From Antedon mediterranea (Eukaryota; Animalia; Echinodermata): 64,000 nucleotides of DNA. Under the pieces are notes generated by a model that was not told the origin of the DNA, made no database searches, and worked only from the letters and a program-made list of their open reading frames with translations. Shown one piece after another: positions 18,487 through 64,000 of this stretch. Numbering within the stretch: position 1 is the stretch's first letter; each line of letters starts with the position of its first letter. Where the stretch lies: the NCBI RefSeq assembly GCF_964355755.1, contig NC_092672.1, positions 25,240,437 through 25,304,436 on the forward strand, read 5' to 3'. The translations under genes and the position numbers were made by a program.

Positions 18487-18606
18487 ATTTATTCTTCAGC
18501 CTTTGAATCAAATTACATGTATTATTATTATTATATATTTTTTAAAAAAAGTATGAAGATTAAAAGTTATCGTTAATGTACAGCGTCGAGTGCACATGCG
18601 TGCGTG

Positions 18607-19179
18607 ATGTTGAAGCTAAGAGGATTGATTTTCGACGTATTTATTGTTTTATTCGTTGTAAGTGTTCCATGGAATTGGTTATTATTGTACAGAGAGAGAG
18701 TGGCGGTTAATCGGGCCGAGATGACACAGCTTGTCAACAAATGTGAAAAGCAACAGAGACGAATCACAGAGAATGCTGATACGATGAATGTGTTTGTGTC
18801 GTGGTTGCGAACAAATATCTTTATAGAAGAAAGAGACGAATGTACCGAATATCACAGAAACTATGTAGTACATCCGATCCTGTCCGTTTCGCCGGTTGAA
18901 GCGTTTGCCAAGACCGTTTCTAGCTTGATAGAAATTCCTGCTCGGGCACTTGGAAAGGCAATGTCTGACTTTAACTTGAATTTCATAGGCAGAATTCCAA
19001 TTTCAATCTGGATTCCTGCCCTATTAACATGGTCTTCTATGCTCATAGCTACAGTTACGTTCGTCTATTTACTCTGTCTAAAGTACAGTCGTCCAAACAC
19101 CGTATTCGTTACTGCACTGTCCACGAAGAAATGTTGGTCGTCGCGAAACGGTAAACATCGGTTAAAAGTAAACTCGTAA
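18607..19179 (+). CDS. CLCC1: Chloride channel CLIC-like 1 (CLCC1/MCLC) homolog, minimal viral form
   Basis: SVPWNWLLLY...KC...WLR...DECTEYH...VHPILSVSPVEAF...PARALGKAMSDF matches CLCC1 SFLWNWMYLY...WFR...DPCQKYY...VNPIWLVPPTKAL...EPLKHIGKG. Confidence 0.85.
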   Translation: MLKLRGLIFDVFIVLFVVSVPWNWLLLYRERVAVNRAEMTQLVNKCEKQQRRITENADTMNVFVSWLRTNIFIEERDECTEYHRNYVVHPILSVSPVEAFAKTVSSLIEIPARALGKAMSDFNLNFIGRIPISIWIPALLTWSSMLIATVTFVYLLCLKYSRPNTVFVTALSTKKCWSSRNGKHRLKVNS

Positions 19180-24006: not shown

Positions 24007-24279
24007 CTATATATACTGCTAGCAAAGTGAATTATGTGTGTATACAATTGAATCGTTGGCATTGAACGTTTCTAAATAAAAGACTTCCTTGCGAATTGAA
24101 AAGACGATGACCTTCAAAAGTTTATGCATAATTAATAGGCATGAGTATTATCTCCTGGTAAGTTGTACACTGTCTAATCGATGTCCACCTTGGAAAATAT
24201 CAACGTATGTGATTGTGAATATATAAGAGGCAAGATTGTGTATTTTTAATGTTTAGTTAAAGTCGCGCGGTTGTTGAAA

Positions 24280-27200
24280 ATGAGTAAATCTGAGAGTACA
24301 GCCGATGATCTACTGCCATGTGAATTATGGCCGGGCAGTCGAATTACGGACGATATTGTGTTTGGTGAACCCATGCACATCATGTGCGTCGAGTTGAAAT
24401 CGTTTGAAATACCGACAAACTCGCTGCGCAATTGCTCCCCGCATACGTACATAATGATGATGGTGTTGTTGAGAAAAGCGTTACAGTTGCACTGCAACGA
24501 TGAACAGCACGCACTGGTGTGCTCTCTTATTGAACCTAGTCGCATCGTGGATGAAACGGTTCGGGGTAAGGTGTCGTGCGGTTACGTGTTCTGGTTGATC
24601 TTCCCACGACGTTTGCACAAAATGTTACAGTACGTTGTCAAGTCCATACTGTTGATAAACAACGGATACCTGCCAGCATGGGACACAACATTCTTGACAG
24701 ACGTCCGATGCGAAATGTTTTCCGACAACGATCTTGATGATGATGATGATGATGATGACGACGATGATGATGATAATGAACCGAAACGTAAAAAGACAAA
24801 ACGTAAACGAAACGATTCAGCAACGGCGACAATAAAATATGCATTTAAACATTTCGATTGCCGATTGGGTCGTGGAACGTCGCAAATGAAACGAACCAAG
24901 ATAAATAGCTATGTTCCACACGTGACAGTGCTCGGGGATTTTGAAAGAAGCATTGAAAAATATTTCTGTTTAGACATACCGAAAATCGAAGGCAATCGAT
25001 TGCCCCCGACTGTTAGAGAACAAGATACAGCAGAGGCGTGGCAAAAGCGCGCAGATCTGTTTACACCAAAGACTCTTTTTTCGTCATCTAGACGTGCAAC
25101 TCATCGACGTGAGCTGACACGTTTGATTGCAAATGAATCGAGTAATGCGCTAACTCTCGATCAGTTGATGACAATTGCCGACAAAGAATTGAATCTACCT
25201 CCGACTCTTAAACTGTCTTTGCAACAGATTGATCCGAGAGTTATAATGAACGAAGGCGATAGTCGTTGTGTAAGCTTCCAACATATGAAAGCGTGGATAT
25301 TGGAACCTCACATGTACGAGGCGAATTATTTTTTGAAAAGACACTTTCCTGCACTTGAAAGTGATACGAACATTGGTAATACAAAATTGTTTGTTCACGC
25401 TATGCGCGATGATGCAGCGCAATTGGACGAAGACAAAATTTCGGCAATCGGAAAACTGTATGTAACCAACCAGAATCAGAACGAAGTGACCATAGACTCG
25501 AGGTACGTATTTTATAATTATCATCATCATCATCATCATCATCACCACAACACAAATTGTAGTGTGCGTGTTTTACTTTTGATTTATAATTGTTTTCGTT
25601 TTGTTTTTTGTTTTTTTTTTTTCTTAATAGGCATTTATACGGTGAAAAATACACGGCAAAGAATCCGGGCATAGTGATGATGAGAAAGATTTTTCACAAC
25701 TTGCAATTGACTCCGGAAAGATACCGTGACAAGACTGTCGGCAAAATTTTCTTTGACATGTACACGCAAGTGCATATGGGAAGACACGTGCAAATGAGCG
25801 AAGTAATAACGCAATCGTATGCCGATATGTGGGATACCGAGATGAAGGGTTGGTGTATGAACGCGTCTAGACACAGTGACGGCAGTTTTGTTCCATTCGT
25901 ATACGAAGAGGAAACTGACGTGAAAATATCGATAGGTTATCGATATCTTTTGAACATGGTGGCTCTGATAGGTAATGTGGCCGGTGTGTCTAACGCTAAA
26001 GGTGAACTTTTGTATATTTTACTGTCGGCTATACGTATCGTATGCCCACACGATGCGATGGCCATGCACGCCATTCTGGTTGGACCTCCCGGTACGGGTA
26101 AAACGTCTGTGATGGTAGCCGCTAAATCTGTAATCGGTAACGCTTACTCAGACGACGTTACTTACCGAACACAGAAAGCCGTGCTCGTCGATAATGAGCG
26201 AAAGTACAAAAATTCAAAAAAAATACGCTTCATGAACGAATTTGTGCCACCGTCGTCTGGATCTAAAAGCGATAAGAATCCGTTGTCAATTGAAAGCAGT
26301 CAAGAAGCGGCAATAATGAAAGAGGAACTCGATTCCGGCTGTACGCGCACCGAACGAACCGAGAAGGTAACGGATCCGAACACGGGAACCACTCGACACG
26401 GTGTTCGAACCGTAATCAACGTTTGCGATAATGCCACCATAATGGCCATGAACGAAAAAAACTTGTGTAACTCGTTAAACGAACGAGTTGTCACTTTTGA
26501 CGTGGCACCCAGTGGTGTTGTCAACGTGCCCAAGAAAATGGAGGGATACGAGAAGGAATTGGATCGTTTAAAAATTCGAACGCAATTCGGCGCTCTGCGC
26601 CACAAAGTAATGGAACATGTACGGTTGGCAGAGTGCGGTCTGTATCCACGTCGATCGGAAGGAGATTCGTACAAAGACGATCGTATGCTACTGTTGACTT
26701 GCGATAGAATATCTGTCGAATTGGAAAGGCAAGGAGTCCGATTCGGATTCGCCACAGAAACTAGAACCATCAATAAACTCATCGACCTGGCACGTTTGTG
26801 CGCCTTTCACAATGCAGTGATTCAAGTGAACGGCTGTCCGTTACAAAGTCTGCACGCCAATACACCTCGATTACCGAACGAGAACACTTGTTGTCTCAAT
26901 TCAAGAATCATAGCCAAACATCAACGGTGGCTGATGCAACAGGACATGAAGCGACTACACGACATGGTAATGTCCGAGGCGCAGCCGGATCCTGCTGATA
27001 TTTTGTTTGCATTTTCGTTAATGTGTCCGATGCCACAGAACGAACTGATCATCGTGAGAACGATAGCGGATCAGTTGATTGATCCGTCTCATGATCCCGT
27101 TCATCGAGATGGTGAAACTTACTTTGAATTGACGTGCAGGAGCGAAGAGGCGCTTCTGTCCATTTTAGAGCGCAAAACGGGTGTTGCTCGCAAACAATGT

Positions 27201-28637
27201 AAGGAAATATTGTTGGCTATGCACAGTGGACGGAGTAAGTTGTTTCGAAAAATGGACGATAACGGACAAAAACAGCTTCTGTTCAAATGTAGCGAGGCAA
27301 CGGAAGCTCATCTTTCGTCACATGCAAACGAGTACCGTGAAATATCGGACGTGATGATGGCAGGAATGTGCAATGCAAAACAGTACAGGGGAAAACATTA
27401 CATATACGTTATGCTCAATGGAAAACTTACACAAGCCGCACGCTTCTTGTCTCATTTGCCCGTCTTCGCTCGACATATGTACTGGGGCCAGTCAAACTCT
27501 CAAGATCCCAAATCCAGCATCAATTATCTAGGATCGGTGCCGAAAAAGTTTACCAACGAAGAAAGATACTGGATAAAAATAAATTTAGATTTTCACGAGA
27601 CCCGACTGGCGTACGTTAGGAAACTCGCAATCCAATCGTGTGTGAGTGGAGACTGCGACGAAAACGGATCAATTGCGGTCGGTGTTGACGTGAAAGAGAT
27701 TGCCGACAGTTTAAGGGTGTTGAAATGCAGATCATATGACGGTAGCAGAGATAGACTACCGATGCCACCGCCGGTGATGAACAACGATCACACGTGCAGA
27801 TTGGTATTGGAAACGTCGAACGCTCGAGCCTTTATGGTACACGTTAGCGTCTTTTTGCCACAACATAGACGTTTGAAAAAAATACTCGAATTGTGCACAA
27901 AGGTTGTGCTCGAAGATAAAAACGCGTGCCGAGGTAATCGAATACGCGTTCTGGTAAATGACGAGTTCGAGGCGGATGAGCTGAGAAACGGTGTGAATTT
28001 GCTAACAAACGACTTGAGACACTTGATCAATTCTTCTTCGATCATCTCGGAAACACCACCACCGAACGTATTCTTTCACGTAAATCTGTTGACGTTGAAT
28101 TCATTGGAAGACGCGTGTAAGCATTACAAAGTGAAAGCCGGCGAATCAATGATCAAGAGTGTATTGGAAAAGTGCGTGTTTAAAAATATGACTGAACGTA
28201 AAACCATCATGTACGTGGATCGTAGTACAAGAGATGTGTTTCAGACGTTAGACATTCAGCAATTGGCCGAAAAGAACGGCGGTAGTCTACCGGTACACAA
28301 GTGTAAAAATCCGTATCTGACACAAACGCTTCGAAATCCAACAACCGAGGTAGTAGATCGTGATAGATTAAGATTCAAGTTAGAAGAACCGCAATTTCTT
28401 GAAGCCGAACCGTCGCACGTTCAACGACGAAAAGCATGGATTAGAATGTTGTCCGATGGTACGGAGATTAAACTGAGAGAACGATTTGGACACGACGTGG
28501 ACACTTATTTACGCCACATAAGACTCGTAGAAGATGCAATTATAGAAAAGGACAAACTGCACGCATTCAGACCACTGGTTTACAAGACTGGTGAAAAGAA
28601 ACTTTCACCGTGTACGTGCTCAAAACAAACGTTATGA
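24280..28637 (+). CDS. Large AAA+ (MCM-like) helicase, two exons (24280-25502, 25631-28637), ~1409 aa
   Basis: A GTACGT...TTCTTAATAG intron at 25503-25630 joins the 467- and 1015-aa ORFs in frame (DSR|HLYG). Walker A LVGPPGTGKT, Walker B-like FMNE, AIMKEELDSG, sensor-1 TIMAMN, Arg finger SLNERV. Confidence 0.78.
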
Positions 28638-35910: not shown

Positions 35911-36002
35911 TCATCGCAAAGTATAAAAATCGACCAGTATGGAGTTTTAGTTTCAAACTTTAATTGGAAGTTGTAGTGAATTCTTGTAGCAATAAAGTAA
36001 TC

Positions 36003-36677
36003 ATGAACGTCAGCCAGTCAGAAGATGAGTTTTATTTCGGCTTTCATTCACACACCGTATGCAGACCGGAAGATAACATGAAATGCGTTCGTGTACATCT
36101 GCTACATAGACTGATAGCAGACACTATTTTAAAACAATGTAGGAAAACATATTTATTCGATTCTCTATATAAGTTACGCGATGTGATCACTGAAGTAGAC
36201 CACATTAGATGTGCAGCGTACGGTGATTTGGAGTTGTCATTCCAAATAGGAGTTCACACAAACATCGACGACACAGCGAGAAGTCCTCTGTGTTACTGGC
36301 CAAAGTTTCTACTCGAAATGCGTGAATGGATACACATTGCGACTGGTCATTTTTACAATATGGTAACTTTGACAAGAGCGGAGGATTCAGCGGAATGCTA
36401 TCTTAATGATGTACAAAGGAGCAAAATAAGTCCTGTATGCATTATGTCTCTGGGACCTACTAGAATCTGTAGATTCGAACACCGCACCAACAAAAACATT
36501 AAACCTGTGAACATAAAAATGGAGCACGGTTCGATGCTGGTAATAAATTCTGAAACAATCAACGAATGGTCAAGAACTGTACCAAAGATAGATGGAATAG
36601 GAAGCACCAGCATATTGACATTTATGAACATTGAAAGGTATAGCAATATCAATATTACAACAAACAATGTATTGTAG
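36003..36677 (+). CDS. AlkB/ALKBH2-like 2OG-Fe(II) fold protein, catalytic residues lost
   Basis: AYGD...WPKFLLEMREWI..ATGHFYN...SPVCIMSLGPTR.CRF...MEHGSMLVIN...EWSRTVPK...ILTF aligns to ALKBH2/3. HxD reads YLN, the distal H reads R, and RxNLTFR reads SILTFM. TATAAAA at 35922. Confidence 0.78.
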   Translation: MNVSQSEDEFYFGFHSHTVCRPEDNMKCVRVHLLHRLIADTILKQCRKTYLFDSLYKLRDVITEVDHIRCAAYGDLELSFQIGVHTNIDDTARSPLCYWPKFLLEMREWIHIATGHFYNMVTLTRAEDSAECYLNDVQRSKISPVCIMSLGPTRICRFEHRTNKNIKPVNIKMEHGSMLVINSETINEWSRTVPKIDGIGSTSILTFMNIERYSNINITTNNVL

Positions 36678-40510: not shown

Positions 40511-40522
40511 TGTGCTGCTGCT

Positions 40523-42163
40523 ATGGCTGAATTTCTACCCCTGTACAAGACGCAAATAACAACGAGAAAGTATGAAAGTTTACCGGCTGTAAACGGCAAG
40601 TACGGCGCTATTCGAATTCAAGAAAGTGGGAAACATGGCAAAGTGAAGACAGCTAAAGAAAACGTGCACGTTGTGATAAAGACATTGTATGATTTCACGG
40701 CCAGCCACACGTCTACGCTCGAGCATGAAGACGTGAACTTGTCGGGAAACAAGGAAGTTTTGGTTCTTGCACACTTAAAACAAACGGACGCGGCTCGAAT
40801 GTGTACGCCTCGTCTGCTCGAAGTTTCTTATCGGCGTAACATCGCAATATCAATCACAATGAGAAACGAAGGATGTAATCTGTACAGGCTACGCTATTGT
40901 TACAAGCTTCTGCCTTGCGTGAAAACGCTTTCGTTACATGTTTGCAAAGCGTTGACGTTTCTCGAAAACGCAGGTGTGGTTCACAACGACATAACAATCG
41001 AGAACGTGGCGTATAGTCGATTAGATAATCGATTTCGTATAATAGACTTTGGTTCTGCCGAGTTTACAAAGCACGGTGCAAGCACGTTTGGCGTTTCTGT
41101 GAAAGAGAGACATGGCCATCGGTGTTTGGGTATCGTTCGAACCGGTTCCATGGCGTCAAAGTACTTGCCACCGGGAAGTCGACTACGCTTTTCCGACACC
41201 GAACCAAACTATTCGTGCGTCAGGAGTGAGGAGAAACTGACAAGGATACCTTTCAGGGACATAAGTCATGTGATGTCAGACAGACGAGTGAAGATGTTGC
41301 GTCGAAATTCGGACGTTTACAGCGCCTCGATGAGTGTGGCTTTAATGTTTTATGATGACAACAATCGGAATAAGTTTGAGACGCAAAGCGACTATTGTGA
41401 TTTAAAAAAGGACAAATTTGCGTACAACAATTTGATTAAGGTGTGTAGACATTCGGTAGAACTACGTGGTCCGATGAACGAACGTGATCTCCAGTTTTGG
41501 TACACGCACGTGAATCCGGATAGATCACTGACCGACGCATTTTCACTGTCGCATTGTTCCAGCAGCAAGAAATACAATTCATACATCGATAGATTCAGTC
41601 CGTTCTTGGGAGTCGAGTTTACGGACGCTTTAAAAGAATGTTTGAACCCTGTACCGGAACGTCGATGTGTATCGAAACTAGAAAAGGCGGCTTCGAAACA
41701 ACACGACTCAACTGTATTGTTTGGCGGTAAACAGTTTTCGTTGAAACGCGTTGAAGATAGATTGGTGTATCTAGTACACGAACATGACATTTCGATTGGA
41801 GACATCAAATTTGGCAACGAAAGCCCGAATCGAAACGTTGTGGTGGTGGAACATATGCACATCATGTCAAACGATCGGAAACTGATCATGTCGTTTCTCA
41901 TGTCGGCTCTCAGACTGAGTCAATATATTGCAACTACAGTAGAATTCTGCGTGTTCAGCGACGAGGACATTAAACATTTGTCGAATTCATTCGGCACCAA
42001 CGCTAAATTAAAATTACACGATGGAATACGCCGAATGTATGTGAAAGTCAACGACGACGTACCGCTCATAGTAAGCGTCGAAAAATCCAGATCCGAATAT
42101 AATACGGTGGTGGTGGCCGATGATGAAGAAGAGGTTTCATCTGCGAAACGACCATGTAGATGA
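40523..42163 (+). CDS. Viral Ser/Thr protein kinase with a C-terminal GNAT-like domain
   Basis: NGKYGAI, VVIK, NKEV, VVHNDITIENV, IIDFGSAE, SDVYS, LNPVPERR. Confidence 0.85.
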   Translation: MAEFLPLYKTQITTRKYESLPAVNGKYGAIRIQESGKHGKVKTAKENVHVVIKTLYDFTASHTSTLEHEDVNLSGNKEVLVLAHLKQTDAARMCTPRLLEVSYRRNIAISITMRNEGCNLYRLRYCYKLLPCVKTLSLHVCKALTFLENAGVVHNDITIENVAYSRLDNRFRIIDFGSAEFTKHGASTFGVSVKERHGHRCLGIVRTGSMASKYLPPGSRLRFSDTEPNYSCVRSEEKLTRIPFRDISHVMSDRRVKMLRRNSDVYSASMSVALMFYDDNNRNKFETQSDYCDLKKDKFAYNNLIKVCRHSVELRGPMNERDLQFWYTHVNPDRSLTDAFSLSHCSSSKKYNSYIDRFSPFLGVEFTDALKECLNPVPERRCVSKLEKAASKQHDSTVLFGGKQFSLKRVEDRLVYLVHEHDISIGDIKFGNESPNRNVVVVEHMHIMSNDRKLIMSFLMSALRLSQYIATTVEFCVFSDEDIKHLSNSFGTNAKLKLHDGIRRMYVKVNDDVPLIVSVEKSRSEYNTVVVADDEEEVSSAKRPCR

Positions 42164-45899: not shown

Positions 45900-47132
45900 A
45901 TGAATAAAATAGTGCATACAGGCGCGATGGAATGTTATGAAAGACGATTGGCCACGTATGAGTTTTGGATTGCGGGACACGTGATATCGCCTACATCGTT
46001 AGCAATGTCGGGCTTCTTTTATACGGGGCAAGACGACCGAGTAGAATGTTACCGTTGTCACGGTAAACTTTCGAGATGGAACGCCGGAGCAGATGCCGAT
46101 ACAGAGCACAAGAAACACTTCCCGTTGTGCAAACTGATGTCATGTGGTAACAGCAGTCCTTTAATCGGCAGTAAAACACATTTGGTCGACTCAAACTCGC
46201 ATATGGTCAGATTGTCGACTTTTAAAAACTGGCCATTTGGACACATCGTATCGGCGTGCACTTTAGCAAAGTCTGGATTTTATTACAGGTCATGCTGTGA
46301 CGTAGTCGAATGCTTCTCTTGCAACGGTTTACTTGAGCGATGGAAAAGAGGAGTGAATGTCGACGAAGAGCATAGAAAACATTTTCCGTTGTGTAAGTTC
46401 ATGTTATCCACCGCGGCCACCGTGGCGACCCCCACCACCACCACCACCAATAGGCAACGGGCAATGCATCCACAATACGCTCTTTTGAATGTTCGAAAAA
46501 TGACGTTTACTACAGTATGGGCTACCGATCATACGCCGAACGGAATAGCCGAGGCCGGATTCTTTGCAATCAATCGGGACCAGGCAATGTGTTTCCATTG
46601 CGGCGGTGGACTGAAAGACTGGCAATTAGACGATAATCCTTGGATCGAGCATGCAAAGTGGTTTCCGTTCTGCAATTGGTTGAGAATCGAAAAAGGTTTT
46701 CCTTTCATCGAGACGGCTCTTATTTCGTCAAAAAGTCCGTTTGATATTGCAATGCGCTCTGAAATCGTTGTGAAAGTTTTAGAAATGGGTTTTGACATGC
46801 AACATGTATCGACTACTGTAAACGATCACGTGAAGAGAACCGGTGGAAACTTTACGTCTAGCCTTGAGCTTCTGAACGCTGTCACGATTCCAGTGAACGA
46901 TAAACCAACAGTGGTAGAAGAGGAAAAAGTGGAGGAAGAAGAAGATTTGCAATCTGTTGTGCGCGATTTACGCGAAAAAAAAACATGTAAGATATGCATG
47001 GACGCTGACGTTTGTGTTCTTTTCATTCCATGTTCGCATTTGGTCGCCTGCTGGTCGTGTTCAAACAGTTTGCTGTTGTGTCCGATTTGTCGAGGTAAAA
47101 TAGATAAACGTCAGAAAGCCATTCTCTCTTAA
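45900..47132 (+). CDS. iap: Inhibitor of apoptosis (3 BIR, UBA-like, RING)
   Basis: Three BIRs (RLATY..GFFY..C..C..W..H..C), VLEMGF UBA-like, C-terminal RING CKICMDADVCVLFIPCSHLVAC..CPICR. Confidence 0.97.
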   Translation: MNKIVHTGAMECYERRLATYEFWIAGHVISPTSLAMSGFFYTGQDDRVECYRCHGKLSRWNAGADADTEHKKHFPLCKLMSCGNSSPLIGSKTHLVDSNSHMVRLSTFKNWPFGHIVSACTLAKSGFYYRSCCDVVECFSCNGLLERWKRGVNVDEEHRKHFPLCKFMLSTAATVATPTTTTTNRQRAMHPQYALLNVRKMTFTTVWATDHTPNGIAEAGFFAINRDQAMCFHCGGGLKDWQLDDNPWIEHAKWFPFCNWLRIEKGFPFIETALISSKSPFDIAMRSEIVVKVLEMGFDMQHVSTTVNDHVKRTGGNFTSSLELLNAVTIPVNDKPTVVEEEKVEEEEDLQSVVRDLREKKTCKICMDADVCVLFIPCSHLVACWSCSNSLLLCPICRGKIDKRQKAILS

Positions 47133-47158
47133 TCATTCGATTGACGCACACGACGGCA

Positions 47159-48823
47159 ATGCACGGTCAAAAGAAGATTTTATCGTTTGGCAAATTGGAT
47201 AATACAATCGATCCGTTGGTGACTGTGAACAGCCGAGGTTCTTTTGGCGTTGTCCATTCGATAGAGTCTGGTTTAGTTGAAAAATTACATTGTGGCAATC
47301 AGAATAGCAGCGATGCACGAGTACGTTTAACATTCAACAAGGAAACTTTCATTTTAGCTTACGCAAACTACTTTGACAGATTGAAACGGTACACGCCGCA
47401 GATATGTCAGGCAGTCGTCGATTCAGGAGTGACTCAATGTTTGCGCATGACAAACGAAGGTTTTGACTTGTTTACAATACGGATGACAATGCAAATGTTG
47501 CCGTGCGTGCTTACACTTTATCGACATGTTGGCGAGGGGCTTGCTTTTCTGGACAAGATAGGAGTCGCACATAACGACATAACCATCAGGAATGTGACGT
47601 ACAACAGACGGCAGGGCCGATTCAAGTTTATTGATTTTGGTTCGGCCGAAGTACATCGTCGAAAAATGATCGAATTTGAATCGAGCAAAAAGGTCGGCTT
47701 ATTTGGAGGTGTTGGATGCGTTCACGGAGAATCGATAGCCTCCGCGTACATACCATCGGACATGCCGATCTACACAATGGACGTTGACACTGGATTCGGA
47801 GGAGTGCGCAGCGTAGAAAGACTAGTGTCCATAGGGTATCGAGATATCAGTCACGTGATGACAGACAGAGTGGTGAAACTGCTGAATAGTGAATCGGACG
47901 TGTTTTCTGCCGCAATGACCGTGGTGACGGCCACAATGTACAACGAATGCCAACAATTTGATGAGGTGCAATACACAGACATGAAAAGACTTGGAGACAC
48001 TGGGCAAAAGTCGAAGATATTACACACTCTTGTCGGCCTCTGCAGACAATTTGTGAAGATAAGAGGTGGTATGACAAAATTCGAAACGGCTTACTGGTAC
48101 ACGTACGTAAACTCTGACATGAACATATGTAAGGCTCTGGAATGCCAGCCGTCCGATGAACTGCCTATACTGGATCGATATCGAAGTGTTCTCGGTGAAC
48201 GTTTTATCGATCGGCTTGTTGACAATTTAAATCCAATACCGGAGAACAGAAAGTCGTTTCTAGTGTTGAAGAACGACGTTCAATCACAGCGCACCAACAT
48301 CGAATCTATGGACATGTTATCGGTGAAGATGGTTGCGCAGAATGTCGTTCATTTGTTTTACAGAGACTTTCAAACGCTAGTTGGAGATGTGGTGTTTCAA
48401 GAAAGTGGCGCAAACATAACAGTTGATCATATGAACCTGTTGATTGACAACGCAGACGGCACGTTAGCGGTCGTGTTTGTTCGATCAGCATTGAATCTGT
48501 ATCGAAAACCTTCGTCATCGTCGTCGTCGTCATCGTCGTCGTCGGTAGAGTTTAGAGTTTACAACGACAGAGAACGTCGATTCTTGGTGTCATTGTTTCC
48601 AACGCATCGACAAACGACAGACGGTCATTTAGTTGTCGAGATTGAAAAGGATTCGTCAATCATTCTTCCTCTTGGAGTGAAGCAGCAAACGGTCACCGAT
48701 AGGGTTTTCAAAGAGATGTTAGGAAACAAAATAAAATCGATACACACGCCTATACGAGAAAACTCATGGTGCACGTCCAAGTCGAATCTACGTGTAAAAC
48801 AGCTGCCATCAATTTCTTCCTAG
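47159..48823 (+). CDS. Second viral Ser/Thr kinase (paralog of 40523-42163) with a GNAT-like C-terminus
   Basis: SRGSFGVV, VEK, NKET, AHNDITIRNV, FIDFGSAE, RDISHVMTDR, SDVFS, LNPIPENR. Confidence 0.85.
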   Translation: MHGQKKILSFGKLDNTIDPLVTVNSRGSFGVVHSIESGLVEKLHCGNQNSSDARVRLTFNKETFILAYANYFDRLKRYTPQICQAVVDSGVTQCLRMTNEGFDLFTIRMTMQMLPCVLTLYRHVGEGLAFLDKIGVAHNDITIRNVTYNRRQGRFKFIDFGSAEVHRRKMIEFESSKKVGLFGGVGCVHGESIASAYIPSDMPIYTMDVDTGFGGVRSVERLVSIGYRDISHVMTDRVVKLLNSESDVFSAAMTVVTATMYNECQQFDEVQYTDMKRLGDTGQKSKILHTLVGLCRQFVKIRGGMTKFETAYWYTYVNSDMNICKALECQPSDELPILDRYRSVLGERFIDRLVDNLNPIPENRKSFLVLKNDVQSQRTNIESMDMLSVKMVAQNVVHLFYRDFQTLVGDVVFQESGANITVDHMNLLIDNADGTLAVVFVRSALNLYRKPSSSSSSSSSSSVEFRVYNDRERRFLVSLFPTHRQTTDGHLVVEIEKDSSIILPLGVKQQTVTDRVFKEMLGNKIKSIHTPIRENSWCTSKSNLRVKQLPSISS

Positions 48824-51184: not shown

Positions 51185-53428
51185 TCAAGCGCAGAAAGCA
51201 TGTGCCCGTTTACAAAGGGCATCGTGACAGCGTACAATAAACAGTATTCTTTTATCTTCTTCTTGCACGCTGCTAAAAACGTGCTCGTTCTTTCTAACCT
51301 GACGTTCTTCTTGGCTCGTTGTGCATACAACTTTAGCGCAACAGTCCACATTTGTTGTCTGCTGCTGCTGCTCATATGTTTTCGCGCGAGAGAGATGCAA
51401 TGGAACGTTTGCAATCATAGCGTACATCTTATCCATTCGTTCTTGTATACTTATGATATTGTTGTTGTAAGAAGAAGAAACGAGAACGCCCAGCACGGAA
51501 TCTGTATCAATGCGACAACGTTTTCTTAGACCTCTTAGTAGATCGGTTGCGCCCACTGTCGAATTGCAACAGGCAGCAGCCAACGGATGATACGCCACTC
51601 CGTTATGTCGGATGTAGTAGGGCACTTGTCGATACAGTCCAAAGGCGATGCACATTTGCTTGTACGCGGCAGAGCTAGTCTCTTTCTTGGACACTCTACG
51701 CATCATTAGCTCGTCTACTTGCTGCGAGTCTTTCAGTTTACAGACAAGTGTTTGCATGATGTCGATGCACGTATCTATGGCCGCGTTGCAATCGCGTTCC
51801 TTCAGAGCAGTTTCAACAAAGTTTTTATCCAGTTCTGTAAGTAATGGTTCAACGTCACATTTTAAGGTGAACATGCCAGTGGTGCTGATGTTCCCGTCGG
51901 CGTGCAAACACGCGTACCTTTTCTTCTTGTTGGTCAATAACAATCGACAGAGTGTCTCTCTGTGTACAAATTTCTGCCAGCTATCACCGCCGCCGCCGCC
52001 GCCGCCGCCTATAACCTGCGCAAATCTTTCTTCCAAACGTTTTCTGCTGCTGCCACAATCATCAGCTAGTTTCACAAACAATGAATCCGTGTCTCCGTAC
52101 AGAACGTGAGCTCCGTTATCTTCGGCGCATTTCTTTAGACGACAAAGTTGCTGTCTGCATTTCGAGGTCACGTAGTTGTACAGTTGAACACTGCCGGTAA
52201 TTACTAGACACCCTATGCATTCGTTGGCGGCTCGTTTGTAGGCAGTCGCGTGCTGCGGATGAGCATCTCGCCCCAACACCAGTCTCTTCATGATAGACGG
52301 CAAAAGACCTTCGCGTACGTTCCGATCGACAAAAGAACCGTCCTCACACATTGTTGAATAGTCTACATTCTTGTCTACTATAAAGCGTGGATAGTAGGAT
52401 TTGAAATCGTACACTTCTACGTGTTCGTGAATATCGGGTACAGTTTCCAGTACAAGACCACCTTTAACGTCTCGCGTCGATTTTCTACGACGAGTGTTTG
52501 GGAAAACAGTTTGTCGACGTATAGCCTCGCGGCAAAGCAGGGATGAGAGCACCTGCGTTCTCGATGCGTTCGGGAACACTCCGACGAGTCTAGACACGTT
52601 CATCAGTGTATCAATCAATTTTTTCGATTCTACCTGTTTGCAATATTCTGGCAAAAGAGACGCGTCGTCTTGCATGGCCCCGTCCGATACGCTGGCCATC
52701 AACTCGAAACAGGATCGTCTACCAACGTACTCGTACAGGGAGTTTGGATCACAACATAACGTGCGCGCATCGTTCGTGGTGTCTAGACAAATGGGCATGC
52801 TATCGATCGGCACGTTCAATGTCTTACATCGTGCTCGTATGCTCGCTCTCACCCATTCTCCGTGATAGACGAGCACGTCAACTGAATCGAAAGATTTTAT
52901 GATTCCAAGCAGTATGCTTCGTTCATTGTCGTCTGTTGTTGCTGCTTGTACAACACTCGTACCGTCGTAAGACAGTGCCGCAATGATTCGTCCGTATACG
53001 TTCAATCTAATGATCAAGTAGAGAACGGACAGTTTTACAGGATGTATTTTTTCGCATTCAAAGTGCACTTGCTCATCATAGTGTACGTTCGAAACGAATC
53101 CATGCTCATTCAACGAGTATCGATGCCATGCACATCCGTGTACACCGACTGCACACTGAGCGTCCAGATCGTCGTCGACAGATGGAAGATTGCCGAAAGC
53201 GTTTATCATTCTCTTTCTGTTGTTTGATACAACTTTTCTGTATTTTCGATTCGATGCTACGTATTTGTCACCTCTGCTCATTACACAGTCACCGCACACG
53301 TCATCTTCAACGTATTCGACGAATTCAACATTGCTTGTCTGCAGCGACAAACGTCGTCCGATCGGGTCTGTACAACGAATTGTCAGTTTTTTCTGGCAGT
53401 ATTTCACTCGTGTAAAGTAGGCATGCAT
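51185..53428 (-). CDS. polB: Family B DNA polymerase, delta-like, compact (747 aa), exonuclease degenerate
   Basis: KGGLVLE...YDFKSYYP, REGLLPSIM, YKRAANECIG, VLYGDTDSLFV, LLLTNKKKRYA. Confidence 0.93.
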   Translation of the reverse strand: MHAYFTRVKYCQKKLTIRCTDPIGRRLSLQTSNVEFVEYVEDDVCGDCVMSRGDKYVASNRKYRKVVSNNRKRMINAFGNLPSVDDDLDAQCAVGVHGCAWHRYSLNEHGFVSNVHYDEQVHFECEKIHPVKLSVLYLIIRLNVYGRIIAALSYDGTSVVQAATTDDNERSILLGIIKSFDSVDVLVYHGEWVRASIRARCKTLNVPIDSMPICLDTTNDARTLCCDPNSLYEYVGRRSCFELMASVSDGAMQDDASLLPEYCKQVESKKLIDTLMNVSRLVGVFPNASRTQVLSSLLCREAIRRQTVFPNTRRRKSTRDVKGGLVLETVPDIHEHVEVYDFKSYYPRFIVDKNVDYSTMCEDGSFVDRNVREGLLPSIMKRLVLGRDAHPQHATAYKRAANECIGCLVITGSVQLYNYVTSKCRQQLCRLKKCAEDNGAHVLYGDTDSLFVKLADDCGSSRKRLEERFAQVIGGGGGGGGDSWQKFVHRETLCRLLLTNKKKRYACLHADGNISTTGMFTLKCDVEPLLTELDKNFVETALKERDCNAAIDTCIDIMQTLVCKLKDSQQVDELMMRRVSKKETSSAAYKQMCIAFGLYRQVPYYIRHNGVAYHPLAAACCNSTVGATDLLRGLRKRCRIDTDSVLGVLVSSSYNNNIISIQERMDKMYAMIANVPLHLSRAKTYEQQQQTTNVDCCAKVVCTTSQEERQVRKNEHVFSSVQEEDKRILFIVRCHDALCKRAHAFCA

Positions 53429-53431
53429 GTT

Positions 53432-54241
53432 TTAGTGCACGGGACGTAGAAAGAGTTTCTTACAAAGACCGTGCTGGGTTGCGGCCACCTGATTGCTTTT
53501 AATTGTTCCGTTGGCAAGAGTCAACATGGACATTAAATCGTGTTTTGTTGAATACGAATGAAACACTTTACAGAGTGACTGAATAAACTTATACTGACGG
53601 TCCAGGGTCGAATACGTAATGGATACGTCACAGCCTCTCGGCAACGATTGAGGCTGCACGACAATTGTTTCGTCTACTTGACAAGCTTGTATGAAAAAGA
53701 GTTTAGGTTTTCCGTTCAACGTTTCACATTTTTCGAAACAGTCGACGATTTCAGTGACATTGACAGTACCGTGAGTGAGAATGCACACGGCAATGCAATC
53801 TAGTCTAGAGTGATCGTATTCACTTAGACGTGTGAGCAACGTCTTCGTTTCTATGGACGTCAGATTGTGATTAACAGACAGTTGGAAGCCGAGATAATTG
53901 AAGACATTTTCAAGCGCTGCACAATCATCATCATCATCATCATCATCATCATAATTGTTGATGATTACTGTGAAACCGCGCGGATTTGAAGTCATCTTGT
54001 ACTCGTTCAATCCGCCATCATGGATAGAATCGATAAATGCATTGTACGCAAAACTACCTCGTGTTTCGATGTCGATCAACAATCGTTCACGAGCGTTCGT
54101 GTTAGATAAAATTGCATCCATCTTCTTGGTCGAATACACGCCTTTCTGTACCAATTTCTCCATTACTTCTCTAATGCTGTTTATGTTACGAATAAAATAG
54201 AGACGATTTTGACGCAATTTTTTCTTGTCTGATCTGTTCAT
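53432..54241 (-). CDS. CARD-containing caspase homolog with deleted substrate-binding loops
   Basis: CARD-like LRQNR...LLIDIETRGSFAYNAFIDS; YKMTSNPRG..IINN, CILTHG, GKPKLFFIQACQ, FIQSLC, LCKKLFL. Confidence 0.9.
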   Translation of the reverse strand: MNRSDKKKLRQNRLYFIRNINSIREVMEKLVQKGVYSTKKMDAILSNTNARERLLIDIETRGSFAYNAFIDSIHDGGLNEYKMTSNPRGFTVIINNYDDDDDDDDDCAALENVFNYLGFQLSVNHNLTSIETKTLLTRLSEYDHSRLDCIAVCILTHGTVNVTEIVDCFEKCETLNGKPKLFFIQACQVDETIVVQPQSLPRGCDVSITYSTLDRQYKFIQSLCKVFHSYSTKHDLMSMLTLANGTIKSNQVAATQHGLCKKLFLRPVH

Positions 54242-54302
54242 TTTATTTAGTAATTTAACCACAAGTCGTCAGAGTGCAATCTGAACGTCAATCATTATTA
54301 GT

Positions 54303-56018: not shown

Positions 56019-56369
56019 ATGAATCGATGTACGCAAATGGATGTTTGCAGATTCTTTTCGGAAAAGTACAGAGTAGATGACTTTGTAGAGAACGATGTGA
56101 ACGGAGTCGTGTCTATGGCCACCGATCGATACGTTAAGAGTGTTGACAGTCTATGCGCTTCTTTGAAGAACTTGAAATGTCAGCGAAATGCAACAGTTAA
56201 AGTTACATCACCAGCACCACCATCATCATCATCATCATCGTTGAATGTTGATCATCTTGCATCACCACCGCCACTGGCTGAGATGCAGATACCGTATTGG
56301 TTCGATGAACTGGAGCGTTCGATGAAAGGAAAACGAACGTGGTTCAGTGTCAACTATCGCATTATGTAA
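56019..56369 (+). CDS. Small hypothetical protein
   Basis: ATG at 56019, divergent from 55984, filling the gap to the protease 3' end. Confidence 0.5.
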   Translation: MNRCTQMDVCRFFSEKYRVDDFVENDVNGVVSMATDRYVKSVDSLCASLKNLKCQRNATVKVTSPAPPSSSSSSLNVDHLASPPPLAEMQIPYWFDELERSMKGKRTWFSVNYRIM

Positions 56370-57202
56370 TTCTGATGAGTAGCTTGCCAATAATTGAATC
56401 CGTCGTCTTTGAACGCAAACGATGCATCCACTGTCTGTGATGGTGGTGGTGGTGGTGGTGGAGGTGGGGCTAGCAGTTGTTTGCCCAACATTTCTGTAAG
56501 TTTCTCGAGACTGTTTATACGTTTTTCAAATTCATCGTCTGTGGTGGTGGCTGCTGCTGCTGCGGCGGCGGCGGCGGTGGGTTTAAGTTTTTTCTCTGGC
56601 GGTTCATTCGTTTCGTGTTTACGTTTTCTATTACCATGATCGTTCATTGTATTATTTTTGATTCGTTGTTCGACTGTTTTGAAGTAATCGTTGCAGACGT
56701 TAATCGTATTCTCGTTGTTTTTTGTCAACAATCGCTTGTGAATGTCTAGTATTTCGCTCAATGATGTAGCGTTTGTAACGTTCACTTGATCTTCCATTTT
56801 TGGAAAACGGCGCTTGAGCAAATCACCCAATTCGGTCTTGTTTGCCATGTTCAAGGTGGCATCATCGATGAGATCATTGGCGGCCTTAAACGAGGCGGCA
56901 ACGTCAATACCAGGATCCGTGTCCCATCGATCCGTCACCGCTTTAAAGTCTTTCATTTGCTTATTGTATTCAGGTCCGAGTCTTCCCTCCATCGTTTCTC
57001 TCAAACGGAGTATAAAGTCACCGAATTGTTCACGCAAGAGATCCACCTCTTCCTTGATTTCTTGTTTGTCTTTTACGCTGCTCTCTTCCTTGTCTTTCAA
57101 CAGCGAGAGTAGAGCATCGAGTTTTTCCGGTGGTAACGTGTTCGCCATATCTTTCACTACTTCCAATTCCGCCAGCAAATTTTCTTCCTTCTTCACAGAC
57201 AT
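56354..57202 (-). CDS. Predicted nested, in-frame scaffold gene (UL26.5-like), 282 aa
   Basis: In-frame ATG at 57202 just after the protease domain; TATAAA on the minus strand at 57244-57239. Confidence 0.55.
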   Translation of the reverse strand: MSVKKEENLLAELEVVKDMANTLPPEKLDALLSLLKDKEESSVKDKQEIKEEVDLLREQFGDFILRLRETMEGRLGPEYNKQMKDFKAVTDRWDTDPGIDVAASFKAANDLIDDATLNMANKTELGDLLKRRFPKMEDQVNVTNATSLSEILDIHKRLLTKNNENTINVCNDYFKTVEQRIKNNTMNDHGNRKRKHETNEPPEKKLKPTAAAAAAAAATTTDDEFEKRINSLEKLTEMLGKQLLAPPPPPPPPPSQTVDASFAFKDDGFNYWQATHQNYIMR

Positions 57203-57697
57203 TGCACCTTCTTTTTCCTCTTTTACTTTGCGACGACGTTTATATCCGAATCTTTTTTCTGCTGTACGTCTGGCGCTGCGCTCGTCACTACAGAACACGG
57301 CCACTGTACCTTTTCGTTGACCAGTCTCCACGAGAGAAACTTCAACGCATTTAGTGTGATCGGCGCGTCTGTAGCTGAGTGACAGACAGTTTAGATGCTG
57401 TGAGAATGGACTGCGTAAAAACGGTTTATTCGTGATCTCTATAAGAACGGCCACTGCACCTGTTCCTTCTTCGTGTGCGTCTGGATGTGTATTGTCTCGC
57501 CACCAATCTAGAACCGTACCGATGCCTCCCGATGAATGTATTCCAACACCGTTCTTACGTGCTTTCACGTGTTTCCATCGAACCGGCAATCCGATGAGTT
57601 TCCATCGATCTATCACGTCAGGCGTTACATCATATTCTTTGTCAACGACCACCGCTGTCACTTCTGTCACCACGTATCCGACAACGAAACGTTTCAT
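56354..57697 (-). CDS. Capsid maturation protease (assemblin/HK97 prohead protease fold) fused to scaffold
   Basis: GLPVRWKH (His), IGTVLDWW, LNCLSLSY (Ser), VEVSLVETGQRKGT (oxyanion G-x-R-x-G-T); helical C-terminal half ends TVDA|SFAF. Confidence 0.88.
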   Translation of the reverse strand: MKRFVVGYVVTEVTAVVVDKEYDVTPDVIDRWKLIGLPVRWKHVKARKNGVGIHSSGGIGTVLDWWRDNTHPDAHEEGTGAVAVLIEITNKPFLRSPFSQHLNCLSLSYRRADHTKCVEVSLVETGQRKGTVAVFCSDERSARRTAEKRFGYKRRRKVKEEKEGAMSVKKEENLLAELEVVKDMANTLPPEKLDALLSLLKDKEESSVKDKQEIKEEVDLLREQFGDFILRLRETMEGRLGPEYNKQMKDFKAVTDRWDTDPGIDVAASFKAANDLIDDATLNMANKTELGDLLKRRFPKMEDQVNVTNATSLSEILDIHKRLLTKNNENTINVCNDYFKTVEQRIKNNTMNDHGNRKRKHETNEPPEKKLKPTAAAAAAAAATTTDDEFEKRINSLEKLTEMLGKQLLAPPPPPPPPPSQTVDASFAFKDDGFNYWQATHQNYIMR

Positions 57698-58921: not shown

Positions 58922-61900
58922 TTAAGATATGATTTTTGGAGTAAACGACGACGGTAGTTGAGCTTCATGATTATCCGATATCTTATTCTCTGTGGCGAGT
59001 TTAGCAATAAACAAATCAACATCTTCGGTGACATCTTCAGACGTGTCCGAGTACCAGTTTACTAGACCGAGCTCGTACGGTTTGTTGTTGGCGTTAGTTC
59101 TCGAGCAATTTATACTCATATCCTTTTGTTTGTACAATTTCTTCACAGAGTCCTTTAATCGATCTAAATCCTGTTGGCACGTTACGGCAACATGATGTCC
59201 AGTTTTTGCATTGAACACGTCGTCATCATAATCGTCAACGTCTCCCTCGAAATTTGCTTGAACAAGTTTCATTCTAATCACGTTCAACGCGTCCGCATTG
59301 TGAATGGTGACACGACACGTGGGACATTCAACTCGGTTGGCTCTCGTGTCTTTGGCACGATTTCGTATCATCTCTCGAATGCAGGACATGTGAAATATGT
59401 GCGCACCGTTCCAATCGACTGTGCTGCATGCTGTAAAGTCTCCTCCGCTTGCAATTGTAGCACAAGGCAAAGCTTCGAGAGAACGACATCCAAATTCGTA
59501 CATGCATATGGCACAGGTTTCACGCTGTAATTCCACAACTTCTTTCGCGTACGACGAGGAGTTATCGTCAGATTCGTTGTATTCCATGGTAATTGATAGC
59601 CGACCGGACGGTGGTATATCTACAATTGCTTGTCTGTCGGATGGTGTTTCGTAGGCATCCGACTCGTTCACCTCGACAACTCTTCGGAAAGGATCGAAAC
59701 GAGAGTACTTTCGTTTCGCATACAGTCTGTTGAGTTGACCGGATTGATTAGAGTTGAAGAATTTGAAGACATCGGCAAATATGGCCACAACAGCTTTTCG
59801 ACGTTCATCTTCTTTGTCGAGTCGTGCAACGTTTTGCAATTGACCAAAGCAGTATTTGAAGGTGGCTCGTTGACCGGCGTCACTGAGTCGAAACTTTGTT
59901 CTTGTAAAATTCACTATATTGTTCATGGCGATGGCGGCGGTGGCTTGATCAAATTGTGAGTGTTTGTCCATGACACCGTCAACGATGTTTTTAATCTCTT
60001 TGAACGCGTCCAGTCTATGCACACGGATTTCGGTCGGTTTCAGGAGCACTAAACTATGAGACTCGTTATCGTCATCATCGTCGTCGTCGTTGCCACGACC
60101 TCTACGCAATTCGCAATAACGATGGTCTTCTTTTTCATCATCATCCTTGTCTTCTTCTTCTTCTTCTTCATCGCTGTTGTTGTGAACGGCATCGGTGGTG
60201 GCTTTCAGTCGTTCTGTAACGTTTCGAATTGCAATCTCACCTTCGGGGTCCAATTGACGACTTGATAATCTAACTGCGTTCAGCATTTGACGTCTGGCGC
60301 TGCTCTGTAATGCCTCGCCGTCGTATGCCAACGTTTTGTTGGTTAAGCTGCTCATGTCCACTCCGTCGTTATTCTCAACCGTATGATTGAAATCGGTCTC
60401 GTTCATTCGCATTAGTTTCACCATCGGATTCTCGTCCACTGTTTTGTTCATGTTCAATATAAAGTTTGTGTCCGTTCTGTTCTCGTCGATTCTTCTTCGA
60501 CTGATGGTTGTAGACGTGGCCATGATTGAGTTGTACCGATCTTCATCAACGATAAATTGTTTGGCCTCTTGCATCGTTTCTAAACGCCATTGTTTCTGAG
60601 CACGGCACGCCTCGTCCAATACTTTCATTTTATTCCACATTTTCAATTCGTTTTCGATGATGTTCAATCGAAACAGATTTTCAATGTGTATCTCACAGAA
60701 TTCTTTTGATCGTTTCACGAAATCCGGATGAATTTCACCGGCTGATAAATCTTCCAGAAAGGGATACTGTGCAAGTACTGCATGTTCGTTCACCAGCTCG
60801 TACCGTCTACTCGTGTCGGACGTGTCAATGTCGGTGGCTAATTTGATGTCGGCCGTCGTGTAAAGGTGTTCACGTTCCATGTGCTTGGTACGATTGTAGT
60901 CGTTTTTGAATCTATGATTGCACTTTCTGAGCCGACAACGCAGACGTAACATGACGAGCAGTTGTGAATCTTCGTCTACGCCGGCTGCAATCACCGTTCG
61001 ACGCTCGGGCGGTTGATCTTCTGCGCAAATTTCTTTCTCGAAAATTTCGGCACCGATTCTTACCAGCCGTGCTGATCTCTGATACCAGTCGTATTCTCTC
61101 AGATATCTCATGATACCACCACCACCACCACCACCACCACCACCGATTCCTAAACGTTTTAGCACCGTTCGAGTCAATGTACTGAATTTCATGTTACCGT
61201 GCCCTTGATCTTCGAGCACCGAGTCTATTGTGGACATGAGGTTGTCGGAAATGAGAACAATGGCCTTTGGTTCGCTCTTGAAAATATGACATTTCATTGT
61301 GCAGCACAACCGCGCCAACATCAACACCGTCATCTGATTCATTCGAGCACTGGCCAGAGGAAACGCTTTGCCGTTCTTGACCATGTACTCGTTGAGCATA
61401 CGCCAGTATTGTTTGGCCATTCGAGTGGACGCGATGGCCACCGATTCAACACGGCCGAAAGCGGCTGCTGAACTGAATTTGTCTAAAGAACTTGGATCGT
61501 GTCCGACGTCCGATAGTTTTCCTCTCAGATTGGCCGCTTTCATCTTTGCTGTCGATCGTAGCGTGTACACGGTGTATCGCTGCTGATGTTCAGATACCAG
61601 TTTGAATAACGTGTCTGCGATTCCAGCACCAATTGGGCGATTTTTCGCCACACTCACCATTTGACTAATTGTGATACAGTCTTTTTCCAGCACGTGATCG
61701 AGTGAACGTATAAATTCGCGCATCGGCATCATTGTCTCCTCTTTAACTTTATCTTCTAGAATTGGCAATTCGGCTCTCTGATCGTTGCCAACTCGGTACA
61801 CTTTCAAATGTTTGTCGCTGATGGATGGATAACACGGTCCGTATCCACCGATAGACGGTCGCGCGACATCACCGTATCGTAATCGTGACGATTTCACGGC

Positions 61901-61951
61901 CAACGGATAGCCCGTCGCCTGTGTGAGATATCTTTTGTGTCCACCTGACAT
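58922..61951 (-). CDS. Large C2H2 zinc finger plus RING-H2 protein (putative E3 ligase), ~1009 aa
   Basis: CRLRKCNHRFKNDYNRTKHMEREH; CAICMYEF...LPC...HIFHMSCIREM...CPTCR; acidic central tract. Confidence 0.85.
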   Translation of the reverse strand: MSGGHKRYLTQATGYPLAVKSSRLRYGDVARPSIGGYGPCYPSISDKHLKVYRVGNDQRAELPILEDKVKEETMMPMREFIRSLDHVLEKDCITISQMVSVAKNRPIGAGIADTLFKLVSEHQQRYTVYTLRSTAKMKAANLRGKLSDVGHDPSSLDKFSSAAAFGRVESVAIASTRMAKQYWRMLNEYMVKNGKAFPLASARMNQMTVLMLARLCCTMKCHIFKSEPKAIVLISDNLMSTIDSVLEDQGHGNMKFSTLTRTVLKRLGIGGGGGGGGGGIMRYLREYDWYQRSARLVRIGAEIFEKEICAEDQPPERRTVIAAGVDEDSQLLVMLRLRCRLRKCNHRFKNDYNRTKHMEREHLYTTADIKLATDIDTSDTSRRYELVNEHAVLAQYPFLEDLSAGEIHPDFVKRSKEFCEIHIENLFRLNIIENELKMWNKMKVLDEACRAQKQWRLETMQEAKQFIVDEDRYNSIMATSTTISRRRIDENRTDTNFILNMNKTVDENPMVKLMRMNETDFNHTVENNDGVDMSSLTNKTLAYDGEALQSSARRQMLNAVRLSSRQLDPEGEIAIRNVTERLKATTDAVHNNSDEEEEEEDKDDDEKEDHRYCELRRGRGNDDDDDDDNESHSLVLLKPTEIRVHRLDAFKEIKNIVDGVMDKHSQFDQATAAIAMNNIVNFTRTKFRLSDAGQRATFKYCFGQLQNVARLDKEDERRKAVVAIFADVFKFFNSNQSGQLNRLYAKRKYSRFDPFRRVVEVNESDAYETPSDRQAIVDIPPSGRLSITMEYNESDDNSSSYAKEVVELQRETCAICMYEFGCRSLEALPCATIASGGDFTACSTVDWNGAHIFHMSCIREMIRNRAKDTRANRVECPTCRVTIHNADALNVIRMKLVQANFEGDVDDYDDDVFNAKTGHHVAVTCQQDLDRLKDSVKKLYKQKDMSINCSRTNANNKPYELGLVNWYSDTSEDVTEDVDLFIAKLATENKISDNHEAQLPSSFTPKIIS

Positions 61952-62009
61952 TTTTTTTTTGTAATGTTTTTGTTTGTTTTTTTTTTTAAAAGACAAATAC
62001 ACTTAAATA

Positions 62010-62919: not shown

Positions 62920-63295
62920 ATGTTAAGTAATCGGCGTGTAAGGATAAGCAGAGGCGCTGGTCGCTCGTATACTGTTGACGGTAAGAAACTGATTTCGGTA
63001 ACAAAACAGATTTGCAACAGACTGTACGTTGACAAACGATGGAAAATAAAGCGAGCGCGTCACATTGGGTCAGCTTCGCTTTCCAGTGAGAATGCCATGG
63101 AAGTCGGTCGTCAGATGGACGCTCAAGTTTGTTGCATGGCCAACGAGGAAGTGAATAAAGAGTTGCAAAAGTTAGACTTGGAGTTTATGAAGGCGCAGTG
63201 TGCTGTCACCAACGCCACCGTAGATAACGATGGTGATGCGTCTGTGGCAATCATAGATCTTGTGATGCAGAATCGTACGAGTGGAGATGCGGTGG
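62920..63295 (+). pseudogene. PD-(D/E)xK-type nuclease N-terminal part, apparently cut at the element boundary
   Basis: RSYTVDGKKLISVTKQI, EVGRQMD, AIIDLVM; composition switches to AT-rich where the (D/E)xK motif is expected. Confidence 0.5.
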
Positions 63296-64000
63296 TAAAA
63301 TGGCATTCAAAAACTTGCATATTTACTGTAATTACGTTTTATGTTTCACATTTAACTGTTTTTTTTTTATGTAGGAGAGCGTATTTACTCTTTTCCAATA
63401 TTTACTGAAGAGTTTTGTAATTCATTTAAAGAAGAAATAGAACATTTTGAAAACACAGATTTACCAAAAGGAAGACCAAATACAATGAACAATTATGGTG
63501 TAAGTGTGGCTACCGTAAATGCCCTGCTTTGCATAAACTAATCAAAAACCCCACCTCATATATTAACTCCCCTACCCCATAGAACATCATTTGGTATAAA
63601 TGCCCCTCATGAACATGACATGACTTCCATGATCTACAATTGACCAAGCATTGTGATTTTTACTGTATTTTATCACTTCTTGATATTGATTTTGTTTTTA
63701 AAAAATGTATTTGATTTCTTTGTTATGTAGAAGGATTGAAAATAAATAAAAATAAAATAAAAGCCACTACTATTAGTAAACCTGCTTAAAATTCTCAAAA
63801 TGTATTTTGTTGTAGGTATTAATGAATGAATTGGGATTTGATGACTACTTCATCACACCTTTACGTCAGAATTACATAACTCCACTTGCTAGGCTCTTGT
63901 ATCCAGACTGTGGTGGAGACTTGTTAGACTCTCACAAAGCTTTTGTTGTAAAGTACAAGATTGGAGAAGATTTGGATCTTAACTATCATTATGATAATGC
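63296..64000. other. Probable host non-coding or repeat DNA
   Basis: AT-rich, no long ORF, (AATAA)n tract at 63740-63762. Confidence 0.5.

Follow-up and report, generated by a model that had tools for sequence, protein, structure and literature searches.

The window that we analysed is a stretch of 64,000 nucleotides (64 kb) from the echinoderm Antedon mediterranea, in which 63 kb of a probably viral element meet a host-type gene (Table 1). Among the genes of the element is one for a DNA polymerase of family B (PolB) in which the residues of the polymerase site are kept and those of the proofreading exonuclease site are largely replaced.

Table 1. Features of the window; positions count from its first nucleotide.
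Feature	Position	Strand	Basis and remarks
CLCC1/MCLC homolog	18604..19179	+	E 2.8e-16
Large AAA+ ATPase gene, probable helicase	24271..28637	+	Two frames, GT-AG intron ~25504-25631
Two related, divergent protein kinases	40487-42163 and 47141-48823	+	Pfam
IAP (3 BIR, RING)	45900..47132	+	Pfam
Family B DNA polymerase, intact frame	51185..53428	-	747 aa; Pfam DNA_pol_B 70.5 bits; model pTM 0.77
PolB: clade-specific C-terminal domain	51188..51361	-	C696, C734, C739 invariant in 4/4 full-length members
PolB: motif C	52073..52114	-	Both aspartates, D446 and D448; 115-row alignment
PolB: short fingers and motif B	52193..52306	-	R387, K398, N402, G406 kept; Tyr to I405; 10-residue loop
PolB: motif A	52373..52423	-	Catalytic D341 and steric-gate Y346 retained
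PolB: Exo III helix	52604..52663	-	Tyr262 kept, Asp to V266; multiple alignment
PolB: Exo II, shortened loop	52820..52891	-	V193 at Asp column in multiple alignments; E191 in alternative register
PolB: Exo I strand	52991..53032	-	Asp and Glu replaced (I139, R141); multiple and profile alignments
CARD-caspase-like ORF	53432..54262	-	Pfam; stop 3 bases ahead of PolB start
Probable capsid maturation protease-scaffold	56354..57697	-	Pfam Herpes_ORF28, E 7.5e-7, 29 bits, below cut-off 40; no PDB match
1026-aa protein, C-terminal RING-like finger	58922-62002	-	Pfam
Approximate right element/host junction	63300..63376	.	CpG o/e drops from ~1.4 to 0.15
Two consecutive exons of host-type OGFOD2	63377..63998	+	Profile positions 47-90 and 91-123

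At its right end the element abuts an intron of the host-type OGFOD2 gene. The collapse in CpG together with the OGFOD2 exons at ~63.3 kb indicates that element and animal DNA are linked here, be it by a true insertion or by a chimeric assembly. An ORF at 62920-63408, presumably nuclease-like as judged by eye, reaches into the junction and appears to be cut there. Towards the other end, positions 1-10000 contain duplications spaced 7292 bases and ~2.1 kb apart (the end of ORF 6471-8105 recurs as ORF 34-813), and a CD225/IFITM-like two-exon gene lies within the element at 5905-6353 (- strand). Two scraps at 17976-18293 and 22843-23169, without a Pfam match, are what we take by eye to be ends of LINE reverse transcriptases; CpG is lower at 22-24 kb, around one of them.

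Several neighbours of the polymerase gene are of types known from viruses. CLCC1 homologs and BIR proteins have been described in allo- or malacoherpesviruses (PMC12639132, PMC5552708; here and below, sources are cited for their accessible passages), and the protease-like, IAP and CLCC1 genes together resemble the gene setting of these viruses. Herpes_ORF28, the weakly matched family behind the protease assignment, is the alloherpesvirus ORF28 family. These virus-type neighbours make a herpes-like nature likely, and the element is probably an endogenous animal virus of this kind. A first reading of the DNA, made from the sequence only, had spoken of a virus larger than 60 kb; there is support for the viral setting, the object itself being an endogenous copy that is attached to a host gene and continues leftwards out of the window. 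None of the 32 large ORFs of the 64-kb window was recognised as a major capsid protein (HK97), terminase, portal or triplex protein, and Pfam revealed neither RNA polymerase subunits of its own nor a mirusvirus capsid module in this part of a longer element.

An SF1 (UL5-like) helicase found no match in the window, where the large AAA+ gene is present instead. Its product of ~1400 aa has two homologs among 6290 candidates (single proteins of 1375 and 1479 aa), and its GT-AG intron points to nuclear transcription. The tools matched nothing in this gene beyond the Walker A stretch; its motif spacing we take, by eye and with no tool support, to be MCM/SF6-like. An 826-aa ORF at 38030-40510 (- strand) with a DxD motif has no match in Pfam, PDB or Atlas, and was presumed primase-like (an AEP reading) in the same way. 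All such readings (MCM-like helicase, AEP primase, PD-(D/E)xK nuclease, zinc ribbon) are our own assumptions, made by eye from known motifs with no tool support. SF6 helicases have not been found in eukaryotic viruses, according to the accessible part of one source (PMC4889955). P0008, distantly homologous to the PolB, and P0194, distantly homologous to the AAA+ protein, each stem from a 39,758-base Logan contig; this is probably the same contig, and the PolB/AAA+ pair therefore likely travels together. Directly after the AAA+ gene, at 29100-36000, a ~1-kb repeat occurs in seven tandem copies, possibly an origin or homologous-repeat region, and an AlkB-like 2OG-Fe(II) domain was weakly matched at 35964-36677 (+ strand).

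The 747 residues of the PolB are arranged as N-terminal, exonuclease-fold, palm, fingers and thumb domains, followed by a C-terminal Cys domain, and Pfam matches DNA_pol_B in the ORF and no exonuclease family. All the motifs quoted in the sequence-only reading are present in this frame: the altered Exo I (LSVLYLIIRL, residues 133-142), Exo II (VLVYHGEWV, 185-193) and Exo III (EYCKQV, 261-266), the altered motif B (KRAANECIG, 398-406), and the intact motifs DFKSYYP (341-347) and YGDTDS (444-449). Motifs A, B and C with their catalytic Asp, Lys and Asn mark the protein as a family B polymerase. In an alignment of 115 rows, consisting of six family rows and 109 other PolBs chosen by length from the search hits, D341, Y346, R387, K398, N402, G406, D446, D448, K502 and K503 are kept; D341, Y346, R387, K398, N402, D446, D448 and K503 are conserved in all five family rows that cover them.

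Codon-position GC and CpG of the PolB gene match those of the adjacent element genes. One contig of sequencing run X1 spans the entire gene gap-free, with three differing letters over 4.2 kb and none at motif residues; X1 is possibly the source of the window, so this agreement argues only against an assembly slip. Run X6 covers the flanks deeply and leaves most of the PolB gene uncovered at 85% likeness, a gap that may stem from a variant without PolB, a diverged PolB or a hole in the filter and that carries no evidential weight. Near-identical DNA was found in nine runs from four studies under three organism codes, with no RNA run listed among the nine. Assembly error and decay of a single copy were rejected, given the X1 contig and homologs that share the eroded site.

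A two-metal exonuclease site requires several carboxylates. In the 109 comparison PolBs the acid is conserved in 106 (Exo I Asp), 103 (Exo I Glu), 102 (Exo II Asp) and 99 (Exo III Asp); 97 of them keep all four acids, five keep three and none has lost all, and the seven that retain just one are microbial or phage-like PolBs, so that exonuclease loss by itself is not unique. The window PolB carries I139, R141, V193 and V266 (or a gap) in these four columns, and a profile-profile alignment concurs for Exo I and Exo II. Next to V266 stands E267, which is Lys or Arg in the homologs P0001 and P0157. The sequence-only reading had all three exonuclease motifs missing; the replacement of the four acids agrees with this, whereas the Exo III tyrosine Y262 is kept and the register of Exo II is insecure. 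E191 falls on the Exo II Asp in the phmmer alignment with a solved archaeal PolB and in a three-row alignment, and pairwise register tests (n=102), too noisy for Exo II and Exo III, placed V193 there in 9 cases, E191 in 8 and a gap in 59. As to conserved acids that would speak for a working site, those of Exo I and Exo III are absent, and E191 stands at Exo II in one register.

A replacement for the lost activity was sought, as had been proposed, in the rest of the window. Its 1142 six-frame segments (63 kb of element) include one PolB-like segment and no second PolB, and DEDD-type exonucleases gave no Pfam, PHROG or NCBIfam match among 32, 21 and 21 ORFs, nor in 12 of 52 further short segments, searches that divergent nucleases could escape. 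With the PolB and DEDD profile searches empty, a second PolB or a split exonuclease within the window was rejected.

The structure model obtained from a six-row alignment was poor (pTM 0.39), and fold searches with it, which had UL8 proteins among their matches, were not relied on. With the 115-row alignment the model reached pTM 0.77 and a mean pLDDT of 72; confidence extends to the exonuclease core, the palm, the fingers and most of the thumb but leaves out residues 679-729. Its fold matches whole PolBs over ~550-580 residues (best Z 17.9, rmsd 5.8, 579 aligned), with E. coli Pol II (17.9), archaeal PolB (17.6) and yeast Pol alpha (17.1) tied and with HSV-1 Pol (15.4) and a UL8-sized chain of the HSV helicase-primase (9.4) lower. 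For residues 133-272 the matches are folds of stand-alone DEDD exonucleases (Z 8.4-8.9, rmsd ~3). Modelling of the exonuclease site, another suggestion of the first reading, thus yields a DEDD-like fold that appears to be retained with its metal ligands lost, in a model that leans on canonical rows.

A word search gave three matches from 6690 candidates, among them one close homolog, P0001, with 47% identity over the full length. The full HMMER search added the family members P0004, P0005, P0006 and P0008, among the best 150 of 647 matches. In the P0004 cluster are five crinoid proteins, from Anneissia japonica, that bear Pol delta-like or Pol II-like annotations, and several crinoid copies carry the annotation 'partial'. 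P0005 and P0158, from two sources, are 267-aa family members that end just past the exonuclease domain, either because they are truncated or, possibly, because they represent exon 1 of a gene that is spliced. When PolB and AAA+ queries were run as locus scans against collections of viral sequences, metagenomes and genomes, no related locus was recovered. In two quick trees, neither of which includes named Pol alpha or Pol zeta rows, the family forms one side of a branch (SH-aLRT 99 and 87) and has a long branch; the second tree lacks 6 of 28 chosen rows, missed by the motif pattern. By sequence, human Pol delta is the best PDB match of P0006 (E 5.6e-12) and the second for the family profile, above Pol alpha, but both trees put the family outside the delta-like rows and do not confirm this lean. 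The C-terminal domain has no Pfam or PDB match, and its three-Cys pattern occurs in no other stored protein; it is likely a zinc site.

The eroded exonuclease site is shared by the family. In P0001 and P0005, as in the window PolB, both acids of Exo I are gone and no exonuclease acid is kept at all; in P0006 and P0008 (22-28% identity) the Exo I Asp is the sole acid kept in the alignment. No member has the Exo I Glu or the Exo III Asp, and the window's subclade has neither Exo I acid. Judged by these alignments, the loss is clade-wide and not the decay of one copy, and being common to the clade it is older than this insertion. The first proposal, a proofreading-deficient polymerase, finds good support in the alignment, the model and the conservation throughout the clade. 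The exonuclease might still edit through a rearranged site with E191 and other acids: E191 is retained in the columns of the window PolB, P0001, P0157, P0005 and P0006, it may occupy the Exo II site, which counts against a replicase without proofreading, and Y262 and, in P0006 and P0008, the Exo I Asp are retained as well. We consider such editing very improbable given the acids lost throughout the family and its subclade; moreover, E242 is the sole position of residues 125-285 that is acidic in all five homologs checked.

The polymerase domain has been kept more strictly. Identity to P0001 is 62% in palm and fingers (141/226) and 42% in the exonuclease domain (63/149), and the catalytic and dNTP-binding residues are retained across 22-50% overall identity, with conservation peaking in palm and fingers. 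This argues against a silent scaffold of the kind of poxvirus F12 and herpes UL8, and against decay of the gene in the endogenous copy, as do the intact frame and a loss of exonuclease residues that predates the insertion. Such an end would suit a copy joined to host DNA, the partial crinoid annotations and the UL8 proteins among the matches of the poor model, and we regard it as improbable. UL8 and F12 resemble the window PolB as compact viral PolB derivatives without exonuclease residues (UL8 has a similar ~750 aa); unlike them, it retains motifs A, B and C and the polymerase catalytic residues.

The fingers and the nucleotide pocket are altered as well. From the conserved Arg to the conserved Lys the fingers loop measures 10 residues, the shortest of the set and as short as the first reading had it; the median is 26 and the minimum 11 in the 107 of 109 comparison rows with both residues aligned. 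Motif B is less altered than that reading implied, with K398, N402 and G406 kept and Ile in a column that is otherwise Tyr (101/109) or Phe (6/109). Family-wide this residue is Ile or Val and the loops have 10-13 residues. Motif B is recognisable in 174 of the stored proteins; 10 of these have Ile or Val here, eight of them family members. The residue preceding the steric gate is Tyr (Y345), a position occupied by Leu in 55, Met in 36 and Tyr in 8 of the 109 comparison rows. By motif order, Y345 would be equivalent to L415 of RB69, and R399, E403 and I405 to L561, S565 and Y567. In RB69, L415A or G reduces base selectivity several hundred-fold, and a triple mutant at L561, S565 and Y567 served to capture mismatches, substitution there relaxing selectivity (PMC3799440). 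P0006 and P0008 have Ala at the L415-equivalent position. Since pocket residues at these selectivity positions are changed, low fidelity of the window PolB is plausible by analogy with the RB69 mutants. An exonuclease-deficient HSV-1 polymerase recovered fidelity via a second change, so compensation is possible (PMC5075021).

How does this enzyme compare with known systems? It shares the PolB fold with the Pol of Herpesvirales (HSV-1 UL30; allo- and malacoherpesvirus Pol), but has 747 aa against >1000, has lost the proofreading acids and the motif B Tyr, has short fingers and a C-terminal Cys domain of its own, and lies near an AAA+ gene instead of a recognised SF1 helicase. Herpesvirales-related regions of starfish and ribbon-worm genomes are likewise embedded in invertebrate genomes and encode DNA polymerases of divergent branches; the accessible text on these regions does not mention exonuclease loss (bioRxiv 10.1101/2025.04.19.649669). 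Close relatives of the window PolB, for their part, lie in a crinoid genome. Archaeal and bacterial B2/G2 PolBs also have a non-conserved Exo I, but their motif C has a single Asp and their Exo III is missing entirely (PMC7544198), whereas the window PolB has both Asp and the Exo III helix with its Tyr. The literature searched, with most subscription papers outside its scope, describes neither the clade itself nor, for any large eukaryotic DNA virus, a PolB that is naturally exonuclease-dead and intact as a polymerase.

A functional parallel could be Pol alpha and Pol zeta, which combine an active polymerase with an inactivated exonuclease domain and C-terminal Cys motifs (PMC7544198). The window PolB is half their size, its Cys domain has no Pfam or PDB match, it lacks the motif B Tyr and normal fingers, and Pol delta outscores Pol alpha; if active, it would work like Pol alpha or zeta by analogy, which does not imply membership there. 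These cellular exo-dead, polymerase-active PolBs are accessory enzymes (PMC7544198), and the window PolB might be one too: a primer extender like Pol alpha for a separate proofreading replicase (viral, or the host Pol delta), or a lesion-bypass enzyme like Pol zeta or E. coli Pol II. It could then stand to herpes UL8 as an active forerunner or an active analogue. The compact size, short fingers, pocket changes and Cys domain fit such a role, as do the tie of Pol II, archaeal PolB and Pol alpha as top structural matches and the AlkB-like repair gene. We nevertheless consider it rather unlikely, with no second PolB across 63 kb of element, a UL8 fold match below those of active PolBs, and no UL8-like protein found in an alloherpesvirus in the accessible account (PMC13030845).

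To the reading that we favour we give an even chance: the PolB would be active, extend primers and serve as replicase to an animal DNA virus that is undescribed and likely herpes-like and that would have no proofreading activity itself. Polymerisation would proceed by two metals at D341, D446 and D448, ribonucleotides would still be excluded through Y346, and the exonuclease fold would persist as a structural spacer. The AAA+ protein could act as helicase partner in the nucleus. Altered pocket residues would lower base selectivity, and the resulting errors might be limited by host mismatch repair or by in-trans proofreading by host polymerases, or be tolerated. The single PolB among the 1142 segments and the likely AAA+ linkage point to a sole replicase, which we think is as probable as its opposite: the element is unseen past the left edge and shows no recognised major capsid protein, terminase or portal gene in 64 kb, and a second, proofreading PolB may therefore lie there. 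Against the replicase also stand an alloherpesvirus polymerase model with a proofreading domain (PMC13030845) and a low-proofreading Marek's disease virus mutant described as 'suicidal' in culture unless populations were large (PMC9671156).

The window PolB and its distant relatives all lack key exonuclease residues, and thus an undescribed, likely herpes-related group of viruses likely copies its DNA without proofreading. By the accepted view, large DNA viruses depend on polymerase proofreading, and herpesvirus mutants made in the laboratory that have little of this activity are unstable. This rule would be put to a direct test by a clade whose polymerase has stayed exonuclease-dead through long evolutionary time. 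Tentatively, and with some doubt on our part, one might picture a herpes-like lineage of echinoderms and other animals with a genome well over 60 kb, copied by a sole proofreading-dead, selectivity-relaxed PolB with an MCM-like AAA+ helicase, leaving error correction to the host nucleus and possibly representing the active relative from which UL8 arose. If the sole replicase is true, nature would have provided an exception to the rule that ties proofreading to genome size; if the enzyme is accessory, viruses would have in it their counterpart of Pol alpha or zeta, and it might link an active PolB to the inactive UL8 of herpesviruses. The element itself points to a group of endogenous DNA viruses of animals that has been sampled poorly.
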